This document shows, one piece after another, positions 4,752-57,386 of a stretch of 62,604 bases of DNA. How positions within the stretch are numbered: position 1 is the first letter of the stretch; every line of letters begins with the position of its first letter. The notes under the pieces are model-generated. The model worked only from the letters and a program-made list of their open reading frames with translations, was not told the DNA's origin and ran no database searches. The DNA is from a bacterium (lineage in GTDB: Bacteria > Patescibacteriota > Minisyncoccia > Phycocordibacterales > SBAW01). The stretch lies in contig JBAXFJ010000003.1 in the NCBI GenBank assembly GCA_037139975.1, forward strand, positions 1 to 62,604, in the 5' to 3' direction. The translations under genes and the position numbers were made by a program.

Positions 4752-6104
4752 TTAGTATACCTCAGATCGATACCTCTTTACAACTTTCACAAGTGCTTCT
4801 GCAATATACAACGCGTCTTTTTTGGTCAGGTCGGGAAGCAGCGTTATCCGGATCGCTGTTTTTGACATTGCGCCTGAGACACCGAGTGCTTTGATGACGT
4901 GCGAGGGCTCGTCTGAGCCGATATTGCAGGCCGAACGGGTCGAGACCGCAACACCTTCGACATCGAGCGCAATAACGGCCATTTCAGCATCAAGGCCAGG
5001 AATCGAGATGTTAAGATTGTTTGCGACCCTCTTTTTCAGCTCTCGTTTTTCGTTCTGTTTTTCCTCTCTTGCGTGAAGTTTAGCTTCACGCAGATGCAAG
5101 TCGAGTACTGGGCCATTCACCAACACATCGGGAATTCTTTTTTTGATTTCAGTATAAAGAAAATCGCGCATCGCTGCTGTTTTTTCTGCACGAGCCTCCA
5201 CACCACTTGCGGCTTCGGCCATGGCAACACCAAACGAGCCTGCAAGCGGTGTGTTGGGCGTCCCCGCGCGCAGGTTGAATTCCTGCACACCACCACGCAA
5301 AACTGGTTCAATGTCGCTTCCCCTTCGCACATAAAGGCAACCGACACCCTTGGGACCCAACACTTTTTGTGCATCAAGCGTCATCAAGTCCACCCCGAGC
5401 TGGTCAACCCGCAGCGGCATCCACAACGGCGCCTGCGCTGCGTCAGTGTGGAAATATAGAGGCAAAACGGGAAGCGCAACCCCACCCTGGAGCGAGGGTT
5501 GGACTTGGCCTAGCGGCCCGGAGCGCCCGAGCGCAGGGGTGGGGTGGAGCTGATTAGCACGGCTCCGCTTTGCTTGACGAATTGCTTTGGCAATTTCATG
5601 CACCGGCTCGATGGTCCCCACTTCACTGTTGACCAACTGAATGGAGATGAACACGGTTTGCTCGTTGATCGCCTCTTTCAGCTGCTCGAGGGAAACAAAC
5701 CCCTGACTATCAACTGGAAGTTCGGTGACATAGAGGCCTTCGACCTCAAGTGCACGAAGCGGCTCAAGCACTGACTGATGCTCGATGGCGCAGGTGATGG
5801 CATGCAATTCGCCACGTTCTTGCAGCAGCGGCCGCAAGATGCCCTGGATGGCTAGGTTGTTTGATTCTGTCCCGCTGGCGGTAAAAATTATTTCGTCGCT
5901 GTGCGCACCAATCGCTTTTGCTATTTTTTCGCGCGCCTCGTCCATCGCTGCTTTTGCTTCGAGCGCTTCTTTGTGCAAGGCCCCTGCATTGCCATAGACA
6001 CCCAAAAGCTGCACCAGCTCTTTCGTGGCGTTCTTCGAGATCGGCGTCCCCGCCGCCGCATCTGCGTATATTCGCGTCTTTTGTATCAGCTTTCTAAGTG
6101 ACAT
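4752..6104 (-). CDS. cysteine desulfurase (class V aminotransferase, NifS/IscS-like) with two inserted segments
   Basis: Motifs FTASGTESNNLAI, HTDAAQA, a PLP-Lys region (DAQKVLGPKGVGCLYVR) and an STRSAC active-site Cys loop. ATG at 6104 is preferred over the GTG at 6158. Confidence 0.85.
   Translation of the reverse strand: MSLRKLIQKTRIYADAAAGTPISKNATKELVQLLGVYGNAGALHKEALEAKAAMDEAREKIAKAIGAHSDEIIFTASGTESNNLAIQGILRPLLQERGELHAITCAIEHQSVLEPLRALEVEGLYVTELPVDSQGFVSLEQLKEAINEQTVFISIQLVNSEVGTIEPVHEIAKAIRQAKRSRANQLHPTPALGRSGPLGQVQPSLQGGVALPVLPLYFHTDAAQAPLWMPLRVDQLGVDLMTLDAQKVLGPKGVGCLYVRRGSDIEPVLRGGVQEFNLRAGTPNTPLAGSFGVAMAEAASGVEARAEKTAAMRDFLYTEIKKRIPDVLVNGPVLDLHLREAKLHAREEKQNEKRELKKRVANNLNISIPGLDAEMAVIALDVEGVAVSTRSACNIGSDEPSHVIKALGVSGAMSKTAIRITLLPDLTKKDALYIAEALVKVVKRYRSEVY
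5068..5095. repeat. 28-bp hairpin repeat cttgcgtgaagtttagcttcacgcagat (copy 1 of 2)
   Basis: 27/28 identical to 19501-19528. Stem is gcgtgaag/cttcacgc. Confidence 0.85.
5479..5545 (-). repeat. 67-bp palindromic element with conserved 33-nt core (copy 1 of 2), in frame in the cysteine desulfurase gene
   Basis: Core 5494-5526 (minus strand) is 32/33 identical to 28021-28053. Flanking arms are accccaccctg/caggggtggggt. Confidence 0.85.
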
Positions 6105-6126
6105 ACATTTGAGTATACTGCTTACT

Positions 6127-6672
6127 ATGCATCTTGCATCTCTTTTTGTAACCACCACCTCGCCAGGAAGTTTCGCCTATTATTTTGCGCTGACTGTTCC
6201 CTACCTCGCGCTTGGAGCGTTTATATTTTCGCTACTCGCACTGGTCTTCTTTTTTATGATGCGACTGCGGATGAAGCGTCTTGCGCTGGGCAAAAGTGGC
6301 TCGCTTGAAGAAACACTGGCTATTCTTTCTCGCAATATGAAAGAACTCGAAAAATTTCGTAGCGAGATGGAGGTCTATCTCAAACACGTGGAGGCCCGGG
6401 TGCAACACTCGACCCAAGGTGTTGGTTTTGTGCGTTTCAACCCATTTCCCACGGGCGGAGGCGGCGGAGGCAACCAAAGTTTCGCTGTTGCGTTTATTGA
6501 CGAGAAGCTCTCTGGTGTGGTACTGTCAACACTCTACGCGCGCGACCGAGTGGGCGTCTATGGCAAACCAATTGAAAAGGGCATCTCAACCTTTGAGCTG
6601 ACCGCCGAAGAAAAGGAGGCAATAGAAAAAGCAAAGCAATCACTCACCACCCACGCCAAACGTGAAGCATAA
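6127..6672 (+). CDS. DUF4446-like membrane protein
   Basis: N-terminal TM segment, then GVGFVRFNPF...GGNQSFAVAFIDEKLSGVVLSTLYARD, typical of DUF4446. ATG at 6127 is preferred over the GTG at 6025. Confidence 0.7.
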   Translation: MHLASLFVTTTSPGSFAYYFALTVPYLALGAFIFSLLALVFFFMMRLRMKRLALGKSGSLEETLAILSRNMKELEKFRSEMEVYLKHVEARVQHSTQGVGFVRFNPFPTGGGGGGNQSFAVAFIDEKLSGVVLSTLYARDRVGVYGKPIEKGISTFELTAEEKEAIEKAKQSLTTHAKREA

Positions 6673-6687
6673 CCACACAGAACTACT

Positions 6688-8220
6688 ATGGAACAGAAAG
6701 AAACCTATCAGGGGCGTCCCCCTATCGTTGCAATTGTTGGCCACATCGACCATGGCAAGTCGACGCTGCTCGACTATATCCGCAAGACTCGGGTTACAGA
6801 AGGCGAAGCGGGCGGCATAACGCAACACCTCTCGGCATATCAGGCCACGCACGAAACCAAGAGTGGTTCACACTTGATCACCTTCTTGGACACACCAGGA
6901 CACGAAGCGTTTCGCGCGATGCGCTCGCGCGGTCTTGGTGTCGCCGACATCGCCATTTTGGTGGTTGCTGCCGACGACGGCGCCAAACCCCAGACCGTTG
7001 AAGCGATAAAACTCATCGAAGAAGCAAAGACCCCCTATATCGTCGCATTCACCAAAATCGACAAAGAAGGCGCCAACCTCGAACGCGCAAAGCTGTCGCT
7101 CATTGAGCATGGCGTTTTCCTTGAAGGCCAGGGCGGCACCATCTCGTTTGCCCCAGTCTCGAGCAAAACGGGCGAAGGCATTCCCGAGTTGCTCGACCTC
7201 ATCCTCCTTACCGCCGAACTCGAAGAGCTGACTGCCGACGCCGACGCTCCCGCCTCAGGTGTCGTCATCGAGGCCAACATTGACAACAAGCGTGGAAATA
7301 CCGCGACACTCATCGTCCTAAACGGCACCATCGAAAGCGGCGAATATGTTGTGTCGGGAGAGAGCTTTGCCCCGGTGCGCATCATGGAAAATTTCTTGGG
7401 CAAACCAATCAAAGAAGCGCTGCCAGGAAGCCCGGTGCGTATCGTGGGCTTCTCGTCCCTTCCTGCGGTGGGAGCAGCATGGCGCGTAGTTGAAAGCAAA
7501 AAAGAAGCAGAAAACTCTGTACGTGAAGCTAAACTTCCCACAACAAGCACATCTTCAACAGACGCAGACGACTTGGTCATCCTCCCCATCATCATCAAAA
7601 GTGACTTTTCGGGCACCGGCGACGCCGTGCTGCACGAGCTGCAAAAGCTCCCCATACACGAGCGTTTCGAGGCGCGCGTAGTGGCGCGCGGCGTGGGACC
7701 CATCACCGAAGGCGATGTGCGCCTGGCAGGCAGTGGCAAAAACCCAGGACTCATCGCGGGGTTCAACGTCAAACTTGACCGTGAACCACGCGAGTTGGCC
7801 GAGCGCCTGGGCGTCGAAGCAAAAACCTTTACCATCATCTATGAGCTCGCGCAGTGGCTTGGTGAAGAAATAGAAAAGCGCCGACCGCGCTCGGAAGCAG
7901 AAGAGGAACAGGCGGTGGCAAAAGTGCTCAAAATTTTCAGCAGCCAAGGCGCCAATGTTGTCTTAGGTGGCCGCGTTGAGAGCGGCGAGATGGTCCCAGG
8001 AAACGTCAAGTTTATGCGCCTTTCTCAATCCACACAGGCAGGTGCAGAAACAGAAAGTGAAATGATTGAGGTGGGTCGTGGCGAGTTGATAGGCCTTCAG
8101 TCCCAAAAAGAACAAGTCAAAAAAGTCCCCAAGGGTCAAGAGTTTGGCGCCATGGTCAAGACCAGCACACCGCCCCAGCCAGGAGACCAGATGATCGTCT
8201 TTGAGGCGGTGTTGAAATAG
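6688..8220 (+). CDS. infB: translation initiation factor IF-2 (short form)
   Basis: GTPase motifs [14 protein letters not shown] and TKID, followed by IF-2 C-terminal domains. Confidence 0.95.
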
Positions 8221-8739: not shown

Positions 8740-8825
8740 GCCGGGGTGATGAAATGGTAGACATAGGAGACTTAAAATTTCCAGGCCGCAAGGCCGTGTG
8801 GGTTCGAGTCCCACCCCCGGCACCA
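8740..8825 (+). tRNA. tRNA-Leu (anticodon TAA), CCA encoded
   Basis: Acceptor gccgggg/ccccggc, anticodon loop cTTAAaa, long variable arm aggccgcaaggccgt, T-loop gggttcgagtccc, 3' acca. Confidence 0.9.
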
Positions 8826-13084: not shown

Positions 13085-13218
13085 ATTTTATTTTCAACTG
13101 ATTGAACTTATCGTCACAGATAATTTTCTGCTGAAAATTTCCGCGACCCCGTCTCGGCGCCGATGCGCCTCCGACCCGGCCACGCTAAAAACTATGCCCT
13201 TGCATACTTTTTATCGTG

Positions 13219-13291
13219 TCCGCCCACCAGGGCTCGAACCTGGGACCGTCTCCTTAAGAGGGAGCTGCTCTACCAACTGAGCTATAGGCGG
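13219..13291 (-). tRNA. tRNA-Lys (anticodon CTT)
   Basis: D-arm tagctcagttggtagagc, anticodon loop ctCTTaa, T-arm ccaggttcgagccctgg. Acceptor ccgccta/tgggcgg implies C1:G72. Confidence 0.8.
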
Positions 13292-19500: not shown

Positions 19501-19528
19501 CTTGCGTGAAGTTTAACTTCACGCAGAT
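19501..19528. repeat. 28-bp hairpin repeat (copy 2 of 2)
   Basis: cttgcgtgaagtttaacttcacgcagat is 27/28 identical to 5068-5095. It lies about 50 nt downstream of the stop of the 19580-19885 gene. Confidence 0.85.
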
Positions 19529-27728: not shown

Positions 27729-27983
27729 ATGGCAATAAACGCAGAAGTGCAAAAAATGGACGCCGAAACATCGGTCAACCTCATCCGTCGCTTTACCAAG
27801 CGCGTGCAAGGTGCTGGGCTCATCCAGCGCATGCGCAATCGCCGCTACTATGCCCGCGTGAAGTCTTCTGAGGTCCGCCGCAAGCAGACCCTCAAAGTCA
27901 TCGCCCGCCGTGAAAACGTTCAAGAGCTCATCAAGCTCGGCAAACTGGTCGAGCGTACTACTCGTGGCCCTCGCCGCAAATAG
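27729..27983 (+). CDS. rpsU: 30S ribosomal protein S21
   Basis: SVNLIRRFTKRVQGAGLIQRMRNRRYYARVKSSEVRRKQ. ATG at 27729. Confidence 0.9.
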   Translation: MAINAEVQKMDAETSVNLIRRFTKRVQGAGLIQRMRNRRYYARVKSSEVRRKQTLKVIARRENVQELIKLGKLVERTTRGPRRK

Positions 27984-27988
27984 CAACC

Positions 27989-28447
27989 GTGGCAATACGC
28001 CGACAAGTACGAAAAAGAGTGCGCTCCGGGCCGCTAGGCCAAGTCAAACCCTCTTTTTCACACTTGTCGGCTCCAAAGACCTCATCTGATTTTGAGGAAA
28101 TCAAAGTCGCCGTGCTTGGTAAAAAATACGACCTTTCGGTCGCTTTTTTAATTCCTGCCGAGATGCAAAAGATTACTAAAGAAAGACTCTCTAAGGTAGA
28201 GAAAAAAGACCCGGGACATATTTCAAACGTACTCTCGTTCCCGCTTTCAAAAACCTCCGGCGAGATTTTGTTATGTCCAAAAGTCGCCGAGAAAGAGTGT
28301 GCAAGTTTTTCGATGGACAAGCGCACCTACCTTGCCTTTTTGTTTATCCACGGATGCTTTCATTTAAAAGGATTGAAACATGGTGCTACAATGGAGAGTG
28401 AAGAAAAACGAATCATGAAGCGATTCGGTCTTCGCCCACGCGAATGA
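27989..28447 (+). CDS. ybeY: rRNA maturation endoribonuclease YbeY
   Basis: NVLSFPL and the HGCFHLKGLKHG metal motif. The start is uncertain: GTG at 27989 (the hairpin element would be translated) or TTG at 28064 (inside the 3' hairpin arm). Confidence 0.85.
   Translation: MAIRRQVRKRVRSGPLGQVKPSFSHLSAPKTSSDFEEIKVAVLGKKYDLSVAFLIPAEMQKITKERLSKVEKKDPGHISNVLSFPLSKTSGEILLCPKVAEKECASFSMDKRTYLAFLFIHGCFHLKGLKHGATMESEEKRIMKRFGLRPRE
27999..28071 (+). repeat. 73-bp hairpin element with conserved 33-nt core (copy 2 of 2)
   Basis: Arms gccgacaagt-ac-gaaaaagag / ctctttttc-ac-acttgtcggc enclose core 28021-28053, which is 32/33 identical to the minus strand of 5494-5526. Confidence 0.85.
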
Positions 28448-35472: not shown

Positions 35473-37377
35473 ATGCCAACAGAACCATCAAAAGGACCAC
35501 ATCGCCCGCACACTGCCCGCCCAAGCGGCACTGGCACAGGCCCACGACGTCCATTTAGTGGCGGCCAAGGCGGAAACAGAGGCAAACGCAGCGGCCCTGG
35601 CCGCGCCGGCAGCCCACGCCCCCACCAAGCGCACCCCGTGCGCGAGTTGCCCATCCCCGGCAGCCAGAGCGGCAATGGCGACGAGAAGCCAATCCCCCCT
35701 TTAGGTACAGGCAACATCCGCATCATCCCGCTCGGCGGCGTCGAAGAAATCGGCCGCAACATGACCTGCATCGAATACGGCAATGACATTGTCATCGTCG
35801 ACTGCGGCTTCCAATTCCGCGAGGACGATACCCCGGGCATCGACTACATCCTCCCCAATACGAAGTATCTCGAAGATCGCCAGGACAAAATTCGCGCGAT
35901 GTTCATCACCCACGGACACCTCGACCACATTGGTGGCATCCCCTATGTCATCGACCGCATCGGCTATCCGCCCATTTACACACGAAGGCTCTCGGCGGTG
36001 ATGATCAAAAAGCGCCAGGAAGAATTCCCCAATCTCAAAACACTCGAGATCCACGAGGTTGAAAAGGACGACGTCGTGCGTGTGGGCGACCTGCGCGTGC
36101 GCTTCTTCTCGGTCTCGCACACCATCCCCGATGCAATGGGCATCATCATCGAGACACCCTACGGCATGGTGGTCTTCACCGGTGACCTGCGCCTCGACCA
36201 CACCGACGGCATTCCTTCAGAACAAGAAGAAAAAGAGTTCGCTTATTTCAAAGACAAAAAAGTGCTCTTTTTGGCCGCTGACTCGACCAACGCAGACAAG
36301 CCGGGCTTCTCACTGCCCGAGCGAATCGTGCAAAAGAATCTCGATGCGATCATCACCAATACTAAAACACGCCTGATTGTTGGCACCTTCTCCTCACAGC
36401 TCGAGCGCATCATGCGTATGCTTGAGGCGGCAGAGCGATGCGGTCGCAAGGTGCTTGTTGAGGGCCGCTCGATGAAAGTAAATATCGAAATTGTGAAGCA
36501 CTTGGGCATGCTCAAGGTAGACGAAAAGATGTTTATCGACGCCGCCCAACTTGAACACCTGCCCGACCACAAAGTGATGGTCTTAGCCACCGGCGCCCAA
36601 GGCGACGAATTTGCCGCGTTGATGCGTGTGGCGATGAAGACCCACAAGTATGTGAAGATCAAGAAAGGCGACACGGTGGTGCTCTCGTCTTCGGTGGTAC
36701 CCGGCAACGAACGCGCCGTGCAAAAACTCAAAGACAACCTCAGTCGCCAAGGCGCCCAGATCATCGACCGCCAGATCATGGACGTGCACGCCTCGGGCCA
36801 CGCCAACCGCGACGAAACCTTCTGGATCCACTCAAAAATCAATCCAAAATTCTTTATGCCCTTGCACGGCTACCACTACATGCTCCGCGTGCATGCCGAC
36901 ATCGCCAAGGCCTGCGGACGCGGTGAAGACGACATCATCGTCCCCGACAACAGCTGTGTTATAGAGATTCAAGAAGAGGGCACCAAGATTGTCCGACTCA
37001 AAGAGATGGCACCTGCGGGCCTGCGCCTGGTGGACGGCTTCTCGATTGGCGATATCCAAGAAGTGGTCATCCGCGACCGCACGGTGCTCGCCCAAGAAGG
37101 CATGTTCGTCATCATCGCAACCGTGAATCCAAAAACCGGCCACCTTAGAAAATCTCCCGACATTATTTCGCGTGGCTTTGTCTATTTGCGCGAGAATCAA
37201 GACCTGCTTTCGCAGACACGCCTACTGATTAAGAAGACAATAGAGGACGGGACAAAGAACCAACAGCCAATCAACTTCGACTTTGTCAAAAATAACGTCA
37301 CCGACGCCGTCGCCCGCTTCCTCTTTGAGAAAACCAACAAACGCCCCATCGTCATCCCCGTGGTGCTGGGGGTTTGA
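35473..37377 (+). CDS. rnj: ribonuclease J with a Gly/Arg/Pro-rich N-terminal extension
   Basis: Metallo-beta-lactamase HGHLDHIGG plus beta-CASP and C-terminal domains. Confidence 0.9.
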   Translation: MPTEPSKGPHRPHTARPSGTGTGPRRPFSGGQGGNRGKRSGPGRAGSPRPHQAHPVRELPIPGSQSGNGDEKPIPPLGTGNIRIIPLGGVEEIGRNMTCIEYGNDIVIVDCGFQFREDDTPGIDYILPNTKYLEDRQDKIRAMFITHGHLDHIGGIPYVIDRIGYPPIYTRRLSAVMIKKRQEEFPNLKTLEIHEVEKDDVVRVGDLRVRFFSVSHTIPDAMGIIIETPYGMVVFTGDLRLDHTDGIPSEQEEKEFAYFKDKKVLFLAADSTNADKPGFSLPERIVQKNLDAIITNTKTRLIVGTFSSQLERIMRMLEAAERCGRKVLVEGRSMKVNIEIVKHLGMLKVDEKMFIDAAQLEHLPDHKVMVLATGAQGDEFAALMRVAMKTHKYVKIKKGDTVVLSSSVVPGNERAVQKLKDNLSRQGAQIIDRQIMDVHASGHANRDETFWIHSKINPKFFMPLHGYHYMLRVHADIAKACGRGEDDIIVPDNSCVIEIQEEGTKIVRLKEMAPAGLRLVDGFSIGDIQEVVIRDRTVLAQEGMFVIIATVNPKTGHLRKSPDIISRGFVYLRENQDLLSQTRLLIKKTIEDGTKNQQPINFDFVKNNVTDAVARFLFEKTNKRPIVIPVVLGV

Positions 37378-37433: not shown

Positions 37434-37625
37434 ATGTACATCCTTGTTTATTCGATTGTGGTGCTGGGAACCTTTGGTGCCCCCGCTATTGCAACCGGGG
37501 CACACGAGTTCAATTCAAAGGCGGCCTGCGAATTTGCGGCTAATGATCTGAGAAAAGAGAATGGGGTTTCCAAAAAAGCCGGGGTAATGGCCATGTGTTA
37601 CCCAAAGGGCGAACGAGACAAATAA
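37434..37625 (+). CDS. hypothetical small secreted or membrane protein
   Basis: aggag lies 9 nt upstream. Hydrophobic N-terminus and two Cys. A terminator follows. Confidence 0.5.
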   Translation: MYILVYSIVVLGTFGAPAIATGAHEFNSKAACEFAANDLRKENGVSKKAGVMAMCYPKGERDK

Positions 37626-37632
37626 CTGAAAG

Positions 37633-37670
37633 AAAAAACGGCGCCCAAATTGGGACGCCATTTCTTTTTC
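37633..37670. terminator. bidirectional intrinsic terminator (copy A)
   Basis: aaaaaacggcgccc-aaatt-gggacgccatttctttttc. It is nearly duplicated at 38383-38420. Confidence 0.8.
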
Positions 37671-37687
37671 TATAGCGACATTTGAAA

Positions 37688-37707
37688 CACTACGATATAT
37701 CGTAGTG
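37688..37707. repeat. perfect 20-bp palindrome CACTACGATATATCGTAGTG (copy 1 of 3)
   Basis: Direct reading. It lies 15 nt downstream of the stop of the TrpR-like gene. Confidence 0.95.
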
Positions 37708-38126: not shown

Positions 38127-38146
38127 CACTACGATATATCGTAGTG
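38127..38146. promoter_or_regulatory. perfect 20-bp palindrome (copy 2 of 3); candidate operator and -10 element of the TrpR-like gene
   Basis: It begins 2 nt upstream of the ATG. The internal TATATC lies 8 nt upstream of the start codon. Confidence 0.5.
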
Positions 38147-38186: not shown

Positions 38187-38224
38187 AACGGCCCATCGTG
38201 ATCCCTGTGGTGCTGGGGGTGTAG
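38187..38224 (+). pseudogene. orphan duplicate of the RNase J 3' end (encodes QRPIVIPVVLGV-stop)
   Basis: Compared with 37341-37377 (KRPIVIPVVLGV-stop), all differences after the first codon are synonymous (cgc/cgg, gtc/gtg, ccc/cct, gtt/gtg, tga/tag). Confidence 0.6.
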
Positions 38225-38382
38225 AGGTGCTATAGTTCCGCTGTAAATCGGGTGGGAGATGCGCTGATGTTCTTTACTCGACGACCCCAAACGGAACCGC
38301 CCTCAGGGGTGATTCTCATTTGCGTAGTTATTTTAGGAGCTTGCCTTATTATATCTTCGTTCCTTTAATTAATCACGGATGC

Positions 38383-38420
38383 AAAAAACGGCGCCCCGGG
38401 AGGGACGCCATTTTCTTTTT
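38383..38420. terminator. bidirectional intrinsic terminator (copy B), downstream of rpoBC
   Basis: aaaaaacggcgcccc-ggga-gggacgccattttcttttt. Confidence 0.8.
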
Positions 38421-56795: not shown

Positions 56796-57386
56796 TCACA
56801 AAAACGTCTTTCTGTGTAGTTCACACAATCCACAACGCTCGATTGCTTCGTAATGTTTCTTGGTGCCGTAGCCTTTGTGGATTTCAAACCCATAGTCGGG
56901 GAACTTTTTTGCAAGGTTGCACATCAGCCGGTCACGCTCGACCTTTGCCGCAATAGACGCAAGCGAAATGACCGACTCGGTCACATCGCCTTTAATGATC
57001 GTTTGTTGTGTGTATTCGGGCGGCGCAATCAATAAGCCATCGAGCAATACCATGACTTCTTCTGGATTTGGGACGATTTTTTTAACACCTCGCGACACGC
57101 ACTGTCTAACAGCTTTAGTAATCCCCACTCTATCTATCACCTTTGCTGAAGCGAACACTACGATATATCGTAGTGAGTTTTTTGCAGACGCATCCTGATT
57201 TTTCACTTTATTTTGCAAAAGCTTGTATATCTCTTCCCGCTTTTTGGGCGAAAGCTTCTTAGAGTCCGCGACGCCGGGAAAATACTTTTTGATGTCAAAA
57301 CCCATAGGCACCAAAACGACCCCCACGGCCACCGGTCCCGCCAAAGGCCCCCGGCCCGCCTCATCGACACCAATTAAAAATTTCAC
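56796..57386 (-). CDS. rnhB: ribonuclease HII
   Basis: GVDEAGRGPLAGPV. GTG start. Confidence 0.95.
   Translation of the reverse strand: MKFLIGVDEAGRGPLAGPVAVGVVLVPMGFDIKKYFPGVADSKKLSPKKREEIYKLLQNKVKNQDASAKNSLRYIVVFASAKVIDRVGITKAVRQCVSRGVKKIVPNPEEVMVLLDGLLIAPPEYTQQTIIKGDVTESVISLASIAAKVERDRLMCNLAKKFPDYGFEIHKGYGTKKHYEAIERCGLCELHRKTFL
57156..57175. repeat. perfect 20-bp palindrome CACTACGATATATCGTAGTG (copy 3 of 3), inside rnhB
   Basis: Direct reading. It is translated as ..SLRYIVVF.. in rnhB. Confidence 0.95.

Follow-up and report, generated by a model that had tools for sequence, protein, structure and literature searches.

The 62,604-bp stretch analysed here (the window; contig JBAXFJ010000003.1 of assembly GCA_037139975.1, Patescibacteriota, Minisyncoccia) contains two copies of a hairpin repeat of about 80 bases, which belong to an apparently undescribed family in the Patescibacteria, the candidate phyla radiation (CPR). 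Among the named matches listed, the family is confined to the CPR. Its stems covary, and the fold of one particular strand is preserved, with G·U wobble pairs tolerated on that strand. Copies are often found where a terminator hairpin would sit, or in frame in permissive loops of housekeeping proteins, and their presence, orientation and integrity differ among close relatives at the same site. In the window, copy 1 is located in a NifS/IscS-like cysteine desulfurase gene and copy 2 either ahead of ybeY or in an N-terminal extension of YbeY.

Two hairpins in the window and the family they belong to

An earlier note on this DNA had pointed to a core with flanking arms at two loci, and this held on re-examination. 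The 33-nt core GCGCTCCGGGCCGCTAGGCCAAGTCCAACCCTC is present at 5494-5526 on the minus strand of the window, and the plus strand at 28021-28053 matches it at 32 of 33 positions; none of 100 dinucleotide-preserving shuffles contained a match to the core with three or fewer mismatches. The arms are ACCCCACCCTG and CAGGGGTGGGGT at the first site (5479-5545), and GCCGACAAGTACGAAAAAGAG and CTCTTTTTCACACTTGTCGGC at the second. Both full hairpins (Table 1, with approximate limits for copy 2) are more stable than shuffled sequence (z = -2.3 to -5.1, by copy and strand). Copy 1 folds better on the plus strand, antisense to the NifS-like gene (-47.5 kcal/mol, against -39 on the minus strand), and copy 2 on the minus strand (-44 against -36.6 kcal/mol on the plus strand). 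With covariance model R1, copy 1 scored 67.3 bits (5479-5545, plus strand, E = 3e-17) and copy 2 76.9 bits (28002-28068, minus strand, E = 4e-20). A scan of the window with the filters off found exactly these two copies, the next best score being 17 bits. The arms were earlier said to be completely different. This is correct for the two window copies, which belong to different subfamilies ('CTCG / CTCGCTYC internal-loop' for copy 1 and 'AAAAAGnG / CnCTTTTT' for copy 2), but not for the family as a whole, in which the inner stems are common to a lineage.

The central 20-mer of the core, CCGGGCCGCTAGGCCAAGTC, has at least 120 exact matches in a collection of bacteria and archaea with one genome per species, where about one match is expected by chance (2 x 596 Gb / 4^20, our own arithmetic). 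Among the matches listed, all those with a named taxon are Patescibacteria/CPR: Saccharibacteria, Paceibacteria/Parcubacteria, Kaiser-, Adler- and Nomurabacteria, Minisyncoccia and Peribacteria. Several genomes carry multiple copies (at least nine in CAZROM01, at least six in JBEKSI01, at least five each in CAYIFE01 and CAZJKG01), and at least four are present in the 805-kb chromosome OY970216.1. The earlier note had proposed selection on structure or a mobile hairpin, with the Rickettsia palindromic elements (RPE) as the parallel, and had named restriction of the core to the two window sites as the finding that would speak against it. Instead, Patescibacteria genomes contain the core at 120 or more sites, each time at the tip of a hairpin, and the stems covary strongly. 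Since this locus set was drawn by exact match to the central 20-mer, conservation of these 20 bases is not measurable in it; the one set unbiased for the core consists of 114 NifS homologues gathered by protein similarity. Loci are designated below by L numbers and NifS homologues by P numbers, and gene calls around the copies are mechanical open reading frames (ORFs).

An 18-mer of the core had no match in 2.9 million viral contigs, so the element is not obviously phage-borne. Rfam 15 at gathering thresholds gave only five tRNAs in the whole window, and in the region 27900-28200, searched with E values up to 10, the sole match overlapping the hairpin was a snoRNA at noise level (E = 6.6). A full-text literature search with four spellings of the core sequence gave only unrelated mouse and human primers, and no paper was found that joins CPR names with miniature inverted-repeat transposable element (MITE), palindromic or repetitive extragenic palindromic (REP) terms.

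All 124 copies examined have the conserved sequence at the tip of a hairpin, with a median stem of 27 bp and a median length of 83 nt for the whole element (typically 70-90 bp). On the better-folding strand, which is the complement of the one given in the earlier note, the tip is GUAAGACUUGGCCUAGCGGCCCGGAGCGC; the 29-nt family consensus is GTAAGACTTGGCCTAGCGGCCCGGAGCGC. It can be spelled out as G-T-W-R-GACTTGGCCTAGCGGCCCGG-AGCGC, in which the first G pairs with the last C and which holds its own 4-bp mini-hairpin, GGCC-TAGC-GGCC. In alignment A2, conservation is complete or exceeds 90% over columns 20-48, except at columns 22 and 23 (the W and R of GTWR, approximately 75%). In an ungapped alignment of 100 copies, double changes were found at 20 of the 20 modelled stem pairs; 87.7% of the cells were paired, against 61.1% in shuffles and 37-53% with slid partners, and the covariation score was 0.64 against 0.16. 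Model R1, which was built on this alignment, also recovered divergent copies outside the window, one with a compensatory GGGC/GCCC mini-hairpin and two without both partners of one pair. The compensatory mini-hairpin is present in L022 and L123, and the tip occurs in a few 'dialects': GGCC/GGCC, GGGC/GCCC and a form that is 2 nt shorter. In L078 (1211-1289) a 16-nt palindrome, TCCGCCAGCTGGCGGA, is nested inside the mini-hairpin of the element. A partial tandem duplication in L034 (1811-1914) has given two tips 84 nt apart. K-turn, bulge-helix-bulge and hammerhead-type motifs were dismissed by eye for the tip, as the sequences do not fit. An origin of the core from a tRNA was likewise rejected: the best match (14/16) is to the variable arm TCCAGGCCGCAAGGCC of tRNA-Leu(UAA) at 8740-8825, and was judged a chance likeness of GGCC-GNNA-GGCC hairpins (estimated E near 0.04).

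The stems show which strand folds. Counted on the strand of the earlier note, mismatches in the stems are 155 A·C and 46 G·T (approximately 3.4:1), so that the wobble pairs are carried by the opposite strand; the stem evidence thus favours folding of the strand opposite to the one written in that note. The A·C to G·T counts were 70:7 and 40:8 at stem pairs 9-24, and the asymmetry fades past pair 25. Divided by gene context (in ORFs and intergenic, in either orientation) the counts were 22:7, 34:8, 51:18, 30:6 and 20:3, and for the two signs of GC skew 56:10 and 27:3. Because the asymmetry is the same in every gene context and with either skew sign, the constraint is intrinsic to the element and does not come from the direction of host transcription or replication. 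In addition, the opposite strand gave the more stable fold in 107 of 118 copies, a difference to which the tip itself contributes. This strand-specific tolerance of wobble pairs suggests a folded single-stranded intermediate or substrate that is recognised via its tip. The core strand of the earlier note lies on the G-rich strand at 65 loci and on the other strand at 36 (44 and 22 at |skew| > 0.03), and the two window copies are oppositely oriented within one region of negative skew. With so weak a bias and opposed copies in the window, replication orientation was rejected as the determinant of copy orientation.

Copies in the same genome have more in common than the tip. At positions 5-22 from the core their identity is 0.5-0.9, compared with 0.26-0.45 between genomes; beyond position 22 it equals the background, though the arms still pair. 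The part of the stem next to the tip is therefore common to a lineage, and its base is specific to each locus. The outer arms are still related in some genomes (GAGACYCGGC.. in JBEKSI01, L069 and L103; C/T-rich in CAYIFE01).

Genomic context and turnover at recurrent sites

Long ORFs contain 40 of the 124 copies, of which 21 are oriented like the gene and 19 against it. The earlier claim that both copies are sense to their hosts is therefore right for the window, on the strand chosen in that note, and does not extend to the family. The intergenic copies occupy tight spacers, 30-50 nt from each neighbouring gene; 17 are between convergent and 7 between divergent genes, and the copies flanked by co-directional genes divide 28 to 18 by orientation. 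Copies are oriented at random with respect to genes. Downstream of ftsZ, whose proteins are 80% identical, L043 and L101 carry the element immediately behind the stop codon; the corresponding place in the window is taken by a plain A7-stem-T7 terminator hairpin. Clustering of the 451 ORFs within 1.5 kb of the 124 copies gave only housekeeping families as recurrent neighbours (valyl-tRNA synthetase (ValRS), RarA-like ATPase, PrmC-like methylase, NifS, FtsZ, SmpB, EF-P and others), and no transposase. Genes between paired copies, named by eye, were TrmD, NlpC/P60-like, endonuclease IV-like and LigA-like, again without transposases. Direct repeats of 3-5 nt at the copy ends were at chance level, with two six-nt matches among 119 copies, stem boundaries being computed, so that a short target-site duplication may be absorbed into the stem; the boundaries show only a weak TTC|G...C|TC bias. 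Splicing or ribosomal bypass of the copies in ORFs was considered and rejected, as the ORFs read through, four frames are free of stops and the orientation is random.

The gene that carries copy 1 encodes a protein matching cysteine desulfurases in the PDB (E = 5e-63). In the database the gene is called as P0001 (450 aa), with a start further downstream than that of the mechanical ORF, and the protein is present on a single contig in a collection of 15 billion proteins. Copy 1 encodes ..ALGRSGPLGQVQPSLQGG.. in an extra segment (site A) directly ahead of the FHTDAAQ strand; this segment comprises 38 residues where the solved cysteine desulfurase 9wer_A has 4, and the inserted peptide is missing from solved homologues. 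A second extra segment (site B, 32 residues against 9 in 9wer_A) contains a second palindrome, as the earlier note had reported for this gene. That note had also asked whether the predicted enzyme structure would place the insert in a surface loop. In an AlphaFold model built on a 114-sequence alignment (predicted local distance difference test, pLDDT, 87), residues 187-216 are coil between a helix (168-186) and a strand (217-221), and the element-encoded residues 190-208 score below 50. Because these residues are low-confidence coil in an otherwise well-predicted model, the element in NifS would be translated as an unstructured linker.

Copy 2 adjoins or overlaps the YbeY ORF, of which residues 42-144 of the long form match positions 23-119 of the PF02130 profile. 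The start of ybeY is ambiguous (GTG at 27989 or TTG at 28064), and depending on the start codon copy 2 is an N-terminal extension of YbeY or part of an 80-nt spacer. The S21-like ORF on its other side was identified by eye, without a Pfam match. Relative to an ORF, the two copies in the window share one frame. Within the YbeY coding sequence, at 28128-28143, there is also a terminator-like hairpin, A6-CGACC-TTTC-GGTCG-T6, which has this form on both strands and encodes ..KKYDLSVAFLIP... The coordinates of the main features are collected in Table 1.

Table 1. Features of the window related to the hairpin repeat
Feature	Position	Strand	Description
Hairpin repeat copy 1, whole stem-loop	5473..5551	+	In frame in NifS-like gene
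Conserved 29-nt tip, copy 1	5498..5526	+	GTTGGACTTGGCCTAGCGGCCCGGAGCGC
Hairpin repeat copy 2, whole stem-loop	27999..28071	-	Spacer between S21-like ORF and ybeY, or N-terminal extension of YbeY
Conserved 29-nt tip, copy 2	28021..28049	-	GTTTGACTTGGCCTAGCGGCCCGGAGCGC
Host gene of copy 1, class-V aminotransferase / cysteine desulfurase (NifS/IscS-like)	4752..6158	-	Pfam PF00266, E = 3e-53
YbeY endoribonuclease ORF	27989..28447	+	Pfam PF02130, E = 2e-14; downstream of or overlapping copy 2
Second, unrelated small palindrome (NifS site B)	5070..5092		TGCGTGAAGCTAAACTTCACGCA = TGCGTGAAG-CTAAA-CTTCACGCA, encodes ..LREAKLH..

The same protein positions carry the element in different species, with differing orientation and frame, in ValRS, the RarA-like ATPase, the PrmC-like methylase, a membrane protein, IF-2 and NifS. 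Translation of the tip follows four combinations of frame and orientation (RSGPLGQV, ALRAARPS, VRLGLAARS and KTWPSGPER), three of which occur at NifS site A. Among the 114 NifS homologues, the length of site A ranges between 20 and 60 residues and that of site B between 8 and 40. The canonical core peptide is present in 6 of the 114 at site A and in 2 at site B, and two more homologues have a variant core at site A: P0006, whose peptide implies GGGC/GCCC, and P0019 (L124), which has GGGC/GTCC. Conservation of the peptide in distant NifS proteins independently of the palindrome, which the earlier note had held out as evidence against a hairpin element, was accordingly not found.

Many of the 114 homologues carry other hairpin-type inserts. 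Further recurrent insert peptides at site A, which suggest that the DNA is palindromic, include SPLRSPSEAL, SGYADFSAEKSAEV and QGDALKSPGVKAS; homologues with such inserts are P0004, P0008, P0018, P0023 and P0024, then P0009, P0014, P0038, P0082 and P0112, and L041 (P0048-type). That the insert is encoded by a hairpin was verified in DNA for QGDALKSPGVKAS (L041) only. These inserts suggest several further families of hairpin inserts in Patescibacteria genes.

In the nearest relatives (78-89% identity) of the core-bearing NifS genes the insert is absent or different. L121, the closest relative of the window (76% nucleotide identity), is missing the whole hairpin of about 81 nt at site A. In one NifS clade (80-88% identity) the element at site B is exactly 82 nt in three genomes, and that of L123 is the reverse complement of that of L122 (83% identity when flipped, 37% when not), which is a flip in place at identical length. 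The arms of L122 are kept at site A of L125, where the tip has decayed, and L124 has only a small hairpin at site B. The filled and empty genes compared are only about 70-76% identical in nucleotide sequence, and the junctions are approximate. Directly 3' of NifS, L123 has a small MazE-antitoxin-like gene (1736-1881); other relatives have a trypsin-like protease gene there.

The small palindrome of site B, TGCGTGAAG-YTWAR-CTTCACGCA, occurs three times in the window: in NifS, at 19503-19525 (intergenic) and, in degenerate form, at 7522-7543. The last copy lies inside the IF-2 gene (infB), where it encodes REAKL, at about the position of the main element in L041 and L122. Of the 122 fetched loci, L121 alone has this palindrome (2494-2510), at the matching position of NifS; on this distribution it appears to be lineage-specific. 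Three further repeats of the window were recorded. A perfect 20-nt palindrome, CACTACGATATATCGTAGTG, is present at 37688-37707, 38127-38146 and 57156-57175; the first two copies are 439 nt apart, beside the duplicated stretches 37340-37373 / 38187-38220 (91% identity) and 37621-37669 / 38371-38419, and the palindrome resembles an operator or a member of a further repeat family. Three exact tandem copies of the 18-nt unit CGCCTATGCCAGTGCCGC, with neighbours overlapping by one base, occupy positions 1-55 and may be a coding repeat or an assembly edge. Beside the tRNA-Lys gene, at 13177-13222, a hairpin has stems of the 'AAAAAG...CTTTTT' style around a short loop that lacks the conserved tip; its score with the model is 17 bits.

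Origin of the repeat and competing explanations

The explanation that we favour, with a little more than even confidence, is that the element in NifS is one copy of a mobile, turnover-prone hairpin repeat akin to RPE and REP elements, seeded as single-stranded DNA (ssDNA) or RNA recognised by its tip, and with arms shaped by template switching. Since the element is multi-copy, patchy, indifferent to gene orientation and tolerated in protein loops, and has no function-linked neighbour, it would be selfish DNA like the RPE and REP elements, and not a regulatory RNA of the host. The G·U-tolerant strand, as ssDNA or RNA, would be the single-stranded intermediate from which new copies are seeded, and the conserved tip would be recognised by a putative factor encoded elsewhere. 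The arms may then be homogenised, lengthened into locus-specific sequence and sometimes inverted by template switching during replication. Template switching is invoked because long perfect stems of local sequence, paired changes and exact flips are its known products: it homogenises the arms of inverted repeats and inverts their spacers (PMC8604942), creates and maintains hairpins (PMC8794818) and expands inverted-repeat arms (PMC13100816).

Several points weigh against this explanation. No transposase or other recurrent gene adjoins the copies and, without a target-site duplication, no mechanism of mobility is demonstrated. The identity over 29 nt across the classes of a superphylum far exceeds what is expected of a selfish repeat. 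Many copies persist at orthologous sites with the tip intact and the stems compensated, as if kept by purifying selection in place, and the wobble asymmetry in the locus-specific stem is not easily explained by a constraint on transposition only. That the same protein positions are hit repeatedly needs a strong selection filter or the targeting of existing hairpins. Finally, the loci were collected by the exact 20-mer match, with only the NifS set unbiased. We tentatively suggest, as a possibility clearly short of even, that the invariant tip is the docking site of a putative machinery common to all Patescibacteria, which acts on one folded strand. If this is true, it would be the first superphylum-wide CPR-specific cis element, either as a signal used by the host (in transcript-end formation, RNA processing or replication) or as the substrate of a new, transposase-poor kind of mobility that targets hairpins and takes the stem from its target.

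The main rival is a structured element used by the host, in which the folded RNA or G·U-tolerant ssDNA shows the tip to a conserved protein or RNA of the Patescibacteria; we consider it rather doubtful. Its roles could be formation or stabilisation of transcript ends, processing by RNase III or a YbeY-type enzyme, or a replication or repair signal, and the tip would be kept invariant by purifying selection at each locus while the stems need only pair. The invariance of the tip across Saccharibacteria, Paceibacteria, Kaiser-, Adler- and Nomurabacteria and Peribacteria fits this, as do the covariation of every stem pair, the compensatory variants of the mini-hairpin, a wobble asymmetry that is intrinsic and extends into the locus-specific stem, the intergenic copies at terminator sites with their excess of convergent over divergent genes (17 to 7), and the persistence at orthologous sites with compensated arms. 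However, neither the copies in ORFs nor those between co-directional genes prefer an orientation, about half of all copies have the preserved strand antisense to every known transcript, and one third of the copies lie in coding sequence. The element is also patchy among close relatives, with the tip of L125 decayed in place between kept arms, occurs just twice in 62.6 kb without an Rfam match, and in the case of copy 2 was not called by a terminator scan. A function of the encoded peptide (RSGPLGQV..), as a selected protein motif added to NifS and YbeY, would agree with the same frame of both window copies relative to an ORF, but is hardly credible: the four readings of the tip, three of them at NifS site A alone, contradict it, two thirds of the copies are intergenic, and the segment is predicted to be unstructured.

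Two other modes of spread were weighed. The spreading unit could be the tip with a short inner stem (approximately 45-65 nt) that lands or is copied in the loops of existing hairpins, such as terminators or older palindromic inserts, which would explain both the locus-specific stem bases and the repeated occupancy of sites. Copies in the same genome are indeed common over only about 15-22 nt on each side of the core, with the arms beyond still paired. The same NifS and IF-2 positions hold hairpins with other loops and without the tip (L041, L107, L124 and site B of the window). In L093, L001 and L024 the full element occupies an intergenic site ahead of the start of a conserved gene; L042 has a small CCGT-CCTA-ACGG hairpin there. 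Filled and empty sites differ by only about 27-30 nt, despite stems of about 20 bp, in ValRS (L042 and L001) and NifS (L107 and L121), and the nested palindrome of L078 sits in the mini-hairpin itself. We nevertheless think this unlikely, as L121 is without both arms and tip, approximately 81 nt together, at the NifS site of the window, related outer arms (JBEKSI01/L069/L103 and CAYIFE01) fit whole-hairpin copies that diverge outward, and the low identity of filled and empty genomes leaves the junctions imprecise. Molecular drive through biased transformation would make the repeat an uptake signal, like the DNA uptake sequences (DUS) and uptake signal sequences (USS), in competent Patescibacteria. 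A clade-wide motif with few 'dialects', the lack of a transposase and of a target-site duplication, and the terminator positions and tolerated reading frames in genes are in line with this, and natural competence has been shown in Saccharibacteria (PMC10633639). It is nonetheless very improbable: the density is far too low (2 in 62.6 kb, at least 4 in the 805 kb of OY970216.1), a 29-nt motif cannot recur by point mutation, and compensatory changes with strand-specific wobble imply a folded single strand, which known uptake signals do not need.

Significance and relation to known palindromic repeats

A very large share of bacterial diversity belongs to the Patescibacteria, whose genomes are tiny and whose genetics is almost unexplored. 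They gain here a clade-specific and easily searched DNA signature, a near-invariant sequence of 29 nt, by which CPR contigs can be recognised in metagenomes. Some of the puzzling additional segments of their housekeeping proteins are explained as hairpin DNA that would be translated as linkers at recurrent 'slots', and gene callers and protein aligners should expect such in-frame inserts. The family also offers a natural system for template switching that would build, maintain and flip hairpins inside essential genes, and recognition of the tip can now be asked about in the genetically tractable Saccharibacteria.

Of the known systems, the element appears by analogy to work most like the RPE. 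Both are small palindromic repeats in a reduced, host-dependent lineage, without an associated transposase, and both occur between genes as well as in frame in unrelated housekeeping genes, where the peptide is tolerated by the fold. RPE are approximately 100-150 bp, in families that are alike along their length within the genus Rickettsia and that each encode a conserved peptide (PMC10969869). The element described here is shorter (approximately 70-90 bp) and lives in Patescibacteria; its likeness is limited to the central 29 nt, with another 15-22 nt or so per side within a genome, and this likeness is superphylum-wide. Its arms are lineage- or locus-specific and, although the palindrome is tolerated in frame, it encodes four peptides and not a single conserved one.

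REP elements and REPINs are hairpin repeats too, present in tens of copies per genome, folding as a single strand and often found at gene ends. REPs have a conserved 5' GT[AG]G beside the palindrome, and on the folding strand the tip of our element starts with GTAA or GTAG. In REPs, however, the stem is conserved and genus-specific and the elements are extragenic, whereas here it is the loop that is conserved and one third of the copies are in ORFs. The RAYT (REP-associated tyrosine transposase) gene, of the Y1 HUH type, is flanked by REPs; no Y1 transposase was seen in the sampled 8-kb loci. MITEs (SPRITE, Correia, ERIC, BOX) are likewise short, non-autonomous and multi-copy, have inverted-repeat arms and are often at terminator positions, and in-frame fusions of bacterial MITEs occur occasionally (PMC10969869). 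MITEs have conserved terminal inverted repeats and a target-site duplication; in the present family the termini are the least conserved part and such a duplication was not found.

In position, after stop codons and between convergent genes, the copies resemble intrinsic terminators and SPRITEs, but a G+C-rich stem of 5-20 bp immediately followed by a U tract is not what they show. In the AAAAAGnG subfamily a run of T5-6 follows an inner stem of 4-6 bp that closes a structured loop of 29-37 nt; copy 1 has no T run, and copy 2 was the one not called as a terminator. DUS and USS occur at about 1 copy per kb, in hundreds to thousands per genome, unlike this repeat. Template switching accounts for stems that are long, perfect and specific to the locus, for 'compensatory' changes made in one step, and for the expansion of arms and the inversion of spacers; the exact 82-nt flip that relates L123 to L122 agrees with it, as do stem bases peculiar to each locus. 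As a mutational process it acts locally, however, and does not explain an identical tip at dozens of unlinked loci in hundreds of species. In attC sites and in the ends of IS200/IS605 elements one folded strand is functional, which fits the strand-specific wobble; attC keeps its structure but not its loop sequence, and the IS200/IS605 ends are paired around tnpA/tnpB and insert beside a fixed tetranucleotide, neither of which was seen here. New within the small palindromic repeats is the combination of a superphylum-wide invariant tip with locus-specific stems and flipping in place.

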